Origin: Escherichia coli
Lineage (GTDB): Bacteria; Pseudomonadota; Gammaproteobacteria; Enterobacterales; Enterobacteriaceae
Length of the DNA stretch: 64,000 nucleotides
Direction: 5' to 3' (one strand)
Assembly: GCF_041248615.1 (NCBI RefSeq)
Contig: NZ_CP158426.1
Positions 61,139-61,313 of the stretch are shown here, piece by piece. The number at the start of each line of letters is the position of its first letter. The first letter of the stretch is position 1. The notes under the pieces were generated by a model that was not told the DNA's origin, searched no databases, and saw only the letters and a program-made list of their open reading frames with translations. Made by a program: the position numbers and the translations under genes.

Positions 61139-61145
61139 CACTAAC

Positions 61146-61170
61146 GCCCGCACATTGCTGCGGGCTTTTT
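61146..61170 (+). terminator. intrinsic terminator of uspF
   Basis: GCCCGCA-CATTGC-TGCGGGC hairpin followed by TTTTT. Confidence 0.7.
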
Positions 61171-61313
61171 GATTCATTTCGCAAATGTGCTGACATTTTC
61201 CCCTCTAATCCGTACCATACACGCCACAGTTTTTATATCAGATTTCTTATGCTGGGCGTTCCGGCATGACGCATACTCTTCTGATGCCATATAACGAATT
61301 GAGTCGCTTTTAA

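Follow-up and report, generated by a model that had tools for sequence, protein, structure and literature searches.

In the 64,000-nucleotide stretch of DNA analysed here (the window), the locus where uspF meets ttcA is almost certainly, as judged from sequence alignments, an empty attB site for lambdoid prophages of the Rac type, located inside the 5′ end of ttcA. An empty Rac site in ttcA is real and ordinary, and it has already been described (Liu et al. 2015, Sci Rep 5:16074, PMC4632033). The useful outcome is a correction of position: the attachment core lies within ttcA, at 61338–61363, and is not intergenic.

Gene order at the uspF–ttcA junction

All 64,000 bases of the window were 100% identical to positions 2819672–2883671 of the chromosome of E. 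coli NRZ14408 (NZ_LT599825.1). The coordinates of the junction, of its neighbours and of other features named below are summarized in Table 1. The preliminary description of this DNA had stated that uspF and a full-length ttcA are adjacent and separated by 175 bp, and this was confirmed, with uspF ending at 61138 and ttcA starting at 61314. Chance does not account for the adjacency: the same junction is present in NZ_LT599825.1, and about 2,487 further complete genomes have it as well. It had also been stated that the window contains no integrase, recombinase or phage genes. Concerning phage genes and integrase this was correct, as neither the annotation nor the open reading frames of the 64 kb included an integrase, an excisionase or any phage gene. 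The statement was too broad in one respect, since a transposase of the IS256-family element IS1414 is encoded in the window. This gene is 44 kb away from the uspF–ttcA junction and is unrelated to Rac.

Table 1. Coordinates of the uspF–ttcA junction, of the attachment core and of other features of the window
Feature	Position in window	Strand	Basis or remarks
sokB antitoxin	10314–10465		Rfam; adjoins hokB
RydC	11025–11088		Rfam; adjoins cybB
IS1414 (IS256-family) transposase	15809–17017		Within the ydcF–hrpA islet
nifJ/ydbK	55544–59068	+	
MicC	59089–59204	-	Rfam; between nifJ/ydbK and ompN
ompN	59430–60563	+	
uspF, universal stress protein F	60704–61138	+	RefSeq annotation of the identical record; Pfam Usp, E = 3.6e-31
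uspF–ttcA spacer, 175 bp	61139–61313	+	Interval singled out in the preliminary description; attachment core outside it
uspF intrinsic terminator	61146–61170	+	7-bp G+C-rich stem (61146–61165), then T-run
ttcA, 311 aa, uninterrupted	61314–62249	+	Open reading frame listing, RefSeq annotation, Pfam PP-loop PF01171
Native ttcA, first 51 nt	61314–61364	+	Equivalent to the K-12 ttcC pseudogene (1434958–1435008) stranded beside uspF; identical through the end of the core
ttcA codons 1–8	61314–61337	+	Segment that would be swapped for the phage's imperfect copy upon Rac-type integration
Rac attB core, 26 bp, AAGAAAGAACAATACAACCTGAACAA	61338–61363	+	ttcA codons 9–17, nt 25–50 of the open reading frame
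Probable strand-exchange segment, 15 bp, ATACAACCTGAACAA	61349–61363	+	Deduced from aligned junctions
dbpA	62378–63751	-	Right-hand neighbour; collinear with K-12
ynaL	63781–63954	-	

Comparison with both Rac junctions of K-12 MG1655

The MG1655 chromosome has, in this order, dbpA, ttcA (1411013–1411948), Rac (annotated at 1411899–1434958), ttcC (1434958–1435008), uspF and ompN. The prophage starts with intR and xisR at its ttcA side, and pinR lies toward the ttcC end. Two copies of AAGAAAGAACAATACAACCTGAACAA are found there, at 1411899–1411924 and 1434959–1434984, that is, 23,060 bp apart and at the ends of Rac. The window contains a single copy of the same 26 bp, and none would be expected by chance even when allowing three mismatches. 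In the record of the phage Rac-SA53, attP and attB are annotated as these same 26 bp.

When the window was aligned with both K-12 junctions, it followed the uspF/ttcC side of K-12 from the spacer to the end of the core; from the beginning of the core on, it followed the ttcA side, with zero extra bases between the flanks. The first 100 bases on either side of the core were 100% identical to K-12. To the right of the core, ungapped identity was 97.6–100% in all blocks of 100–2,500 bases (97.6–99.5% in those of 200–2,500 bases). To the left, past the first 100 bases, the only difference in a gapped alignment was a 1-nt indel: one T, in a T-run of the spacer, is the sole change between the 175-bp spacer and the K-12 uspF–ttcC spacer, and it is still the only one when the first 50 nt of ttcA are included in the comparison. 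So, it can be said that the attB is clean, because there is one core, both flanks are collinear and no base has been added. A degraded prophage remnant at the site was considered as a candidate and rejected, the junction being base-perfect.

These alignments bear also on the possibility that the junction is an assembly artefact, or the product of a non-specific (illegitimate) deletion of a former prophage, which is scarcely credible. Nothing specific speaks for it, apart from a messy local duplication at the equivalent junction in the assembly of K-12 AG100, which is considered below. Against it stand the base-perfect junction with its one core and collinear flanks, and the recurrence of this junction in independent complete genomes, about 2,487 in number. 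Moreover, a ttcA that is intact (311 aa) and has its native N-terminus is not what an illegitimate deletion would leave behind.

The preliminary description had considered the interval between uspF and ttcA as an unoccupied Rac attachment region. The empty Rac site was upheld by the alignments, but not its position, as the core is inside ttcA and outside the 175-bp spacer. It is very improbable that the attachment site is located literally within 61139–61313, even though the K-12 gene order ttcA–Rac–uspF would be compatible with such a placement. In K-12, the whole spacer and the 50 nt of ttcA that follow are contiguous with uspF and outside Rac (the part of the original ttcA that remains on that side, ttcC, comprises its first 51 nt), and the duplicated core corresponds to 61338–61363 of the window. 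In addition, the left attachment site, attL, has been published as being inside the ttcA coding region (PMC4632033). The spacer as attachment site is thus refuted by the junction alignments. Alignment to K-12 across the Rac boundaries had been proposed in the preliminary description as the way to find the attB core, and it did locate it. The same description had made its reading depend on where Rac integrates relative to these genes, and in this regard the position turned out to be slightly different, 25–50 bp into the ttcA coding sequence.

The attachment core and the probable segment of strand exchange

At the integrase-side junctions of K-12, O111:H- 110512, ETEC6334 and Rac-SA53, what precedes the core is an imperfect version of the ttcA start carried by the phage (ATGCAAGAAAATCAAC...), and ATGCAAGAAAATCAA... 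is found in place of the ATGTCGCAAAATCAAG... present at 61314–61337 of the window. The competence of the window attB as a substrate of IntR is inferred from its 26/26 identity to the sites that flank resident prophages.

Another observation concerns the part of the core in which the exchange may take place. In Rac-SA53, the integrase-side and uspF-side copies of the core differ at positions 9–11 (GAT versus ACA). Since they differ there, phage-derived sequence reaches as far as position 11, and the exchange should be to its right. In agreement with this, ATACAACCTGAACAA was the only segment identical across all seven aligned junction sequences. This suggests that strand exchange by IntR takes place within the right-hand 15 bp of the 26-bp core, a deduction based on one polymorphic phage record and on the assumption that its differences are older than the integration.

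A search of the phage collection with the reconstructed attP of K-12 gave no record covering at least 80% of it. The phage records that matched across the core (vB_EcoS-683R6 and Rac-SA53) derive from prophages, and their sequences are opened at the att site or close to it.

The ttcA product and its upstream region

The ttcA product is a predicted full-length tRNA 2-thiocytidine(32) synthetase of the PP-loop ATPase type, with a Pfam match to PF01171 (E = 1.2e-13) and with the SGGKDS motif and the Cys-x-x-Cys motifs CSLC and CNLC visible in the translation. It has the same length as K-12 TtcA, 311 aa, from which it differs at five residues. Four of the differences are within the first eight residues (positions 2, 3, 6 and 8): the N-terminus is MSQNQEIS in the window and in K-12 ttcC, versus MQENQQIT in K-12 ttcA. 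The fifth difference is at residue 290 (window position 62181), which is G here and C in K-12.

Liu et al. (PMC4632033) found that excision of Rac from K-12 BW25113 alters four N-terminal residues of TtcA, and their four changes are precisely the ones seen here. The form resulting from excision, TtcA′ (MSQNQEIS), was seen by them also in 14 strains that had no rac-like prophage, and was considered as probably ancestral. The N-terminus of TtcA in the window is therefore of this prophage-free type.

Concerning the spacer, the intrinsic terminator of uspF was recognized by a terminator scan and RNA folding (-14.1 kcal/mol, z = -4.3). The native ttcA promoter and 5′ UTR are presumably within the spacer as well. 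A promoter scan of the spacer gave a lone match of the sigma-70 type at 61190–61218, which was weak and no better than those of shuffled sequence; because this match is at chance level, no mapped ttcA promoter is claimed. An Rfam scan of the whole window yielded only sokB, RydC and MicC, with zero families within the uspF–ttcA spacer.

Empty and occupied sites among E. coli genomes

With a 1.9-kb probe, 2,487 of 5,413 complete E. coli genomes showed the uninterrupted junction; a shorter probe, of 174 bp, gave nearly the same result (2,488 of 5,410). About 46% of the sites are thus empty and about 54% occupied. In the remaining genomes the match is interrupted at the equivalent of 61321 in the window, which falls within the ttcA start copy brought by the phage. 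Two occupied genomes that were sampled, O111:H- 110512 and ETEC6334, carry recE-recT-ralR-xisR-intR directly upstream of ttcA. In the window, what lies upstream of ttcA is the spacer and uspF, and not intR-xisR-ralR-recT-recE.

The integrase gene was screened for by megablast with a chimeric probe, in which 1 kb of K-12 intR was joined to an anchor specific for the window. About 2,950 intR places were recorded, which agrees with the number of genomes whose junction is split (approximately 2,926). The chromosome of NRZ14408 matched the anchor only and showed no K-12-type intR, at a sensitivity that an integrase below about 85% nucleotide identity would escape. On this basis, the presence of Rac elsewhere in the strain was rejected as far as the chromosome and K-12-type integrases are concerned.

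It is possible, though on balance unlikely, that the site is secondarily empty, i.e., that a Rac-type prophage was once present in the lineage and was excised precisely by IntR/XisR, with restoration of the native ttcA. When Rac is excised from K-12, the sequence and the N-terminus that result are precisely those of the window (PMC4632033). Even a single serotype, O157:H7, includes both occupied and empty sites, with Z1813 (NZ_CP062725.1) and FRIK2533 (NZ_CP015842.1) among the strains compared. Besides, K-12 AG100 (NZ_LN832404.1) is without Rac and has the window-type attB sequence at the junction. As a natural cured control, AG100 gives weak support only, given its odd tandem duplications: its positions 2646–3500 contain duplicated segments equivalent to window 61168–61394 and 61363–61627, which create a partial extra ttcA. 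The likely cause of these duplications is a local error of assembly at a junction from which Rac had been excised. On the other hand, Liu et al. read this form of TtcA as ancestral (PMC4632033), and no Rac-type intR is left on the NRZ14408 chromosome at megablast sensitivity. Precise excision is scarless, so the sequence is the same for a cured and for a never lysogenised lineage. If excision were the true history, ttcA would toggle reversibly across E. coli lineages between a phage-promoted form with MQENQQIT and a native-promoter form with MSQNQEIS.

Other features of the window

An islet of about 3 kb (15298–18291) lies between ydcF and hrpA, where the K-12 equivalent is only 271 bp. In addition to the IS1414 transposase gene, it contains three or four small hypothetical open reading frames (15413–15748, 17233–17682, 17669–18007 and a partial one at 18042–18146), with zero Pfam or PADLOC matches. 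The hrpA-proximal part of the islet was present in 586 of 5,418 genomes, O157:H7 included.

Two other loci are also different from K-12. The gap between pdxI and paaY (31035–31265) measures only 231 bp, and the 8.6-kb ydbA autotransporter pseudogene is wholly absent from it; at the same position in K-12, ydbA is disrupted by IS2D and IS30C. The gapC gene (11818–12819; annotated as gap, type I glyceraldehyde-3-phosphate dehydrogenase), a pseudogene in K-12 MG1655, has here an intact open reading frame of 333 aa.

Proposed mechanism and significance

The aligned junctions establish the geometry, and it seems reasonable to interpret the empty attB in ttcA as the target of the following sequence of events. 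The attP of a Rac-type phage contains the same 26-bp core just downstream of intR, preceded by the imperfect copy of the ttcA start. IntR, a tyrosine integrase, would recombine within the core, most likely in its right-hand 15 bp, with insertion of the prophage as the result. The insertion would put intR next to ttcA, and the phage copy would give this gene a new promoter region and its first eight codons, with four amino acids changed. Beside uspF there would remain the native spacer and, as a ttcC stub, the first 51 nt of ttcA, as is the case in K-12. In the window, integration has either never happened or not persisted, and ttcA keeps its native upstream region and the MSQNQEIS start.

The importance of the empty Rac site hardly goes beyond annotation. 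Being Rac-free at ttcA, NRZ14408 is expected to make the native TtcA isoform from the native upstream region, and it should offer an intact target to Rac-type phages such as Rac-SA53. With about 46% of the sites empty and about 54% occupied, the site represents a common presence/absence polymorphism and not an unusual feature.

Comparison with known systems

The window and K-12 MG1655 are alike in that ompN, uspF, ttcA, dbpA and ynaL are collinear and the 26-bp core is identical. They differ in that MG1655 has a 23,060-bp prophage between two cores, while the window has one core and no prophage. The ttcA start supplied by the phage (MQENQQIT) and the ttcC stub of 51 nt are likewise features of MG1655 that the window does not have.

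With respect to the attB/TtcA′ state of Liu et al. 2015 (PMC4632033), the gene, the position and the N-terminus are the same, and the alignments of the present analysis show that both ends of Rac in K-12 have the same core. Nothing substantive is different; what is added here is the frequency of the empty state (about 46% of 5,413 genomes) and the probable 15-bp exchange segment. Rac-SA53 and the other occupying elements use the same ttcA site, of which the window contains the target only, and the integrase-side core of Rac-SA53 itself differs at positions 9–11.

Two other prophages, e14 in icd and Gifsy-1 in lepA (both cited in PMC4632033), also have their integration site within a coding region and provide a substitute for the gene end that they displace. 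The likeness to ttcA/Rac is that attB is within an open reading frame and that a phage near-copy of the displaced end keeps the host gene functional. The difference is in the end concerned: with e14 it is the 3′ end of icd that is replaced, whereas with Rac it is the 5′ end of ttcA, together with its promoter side.
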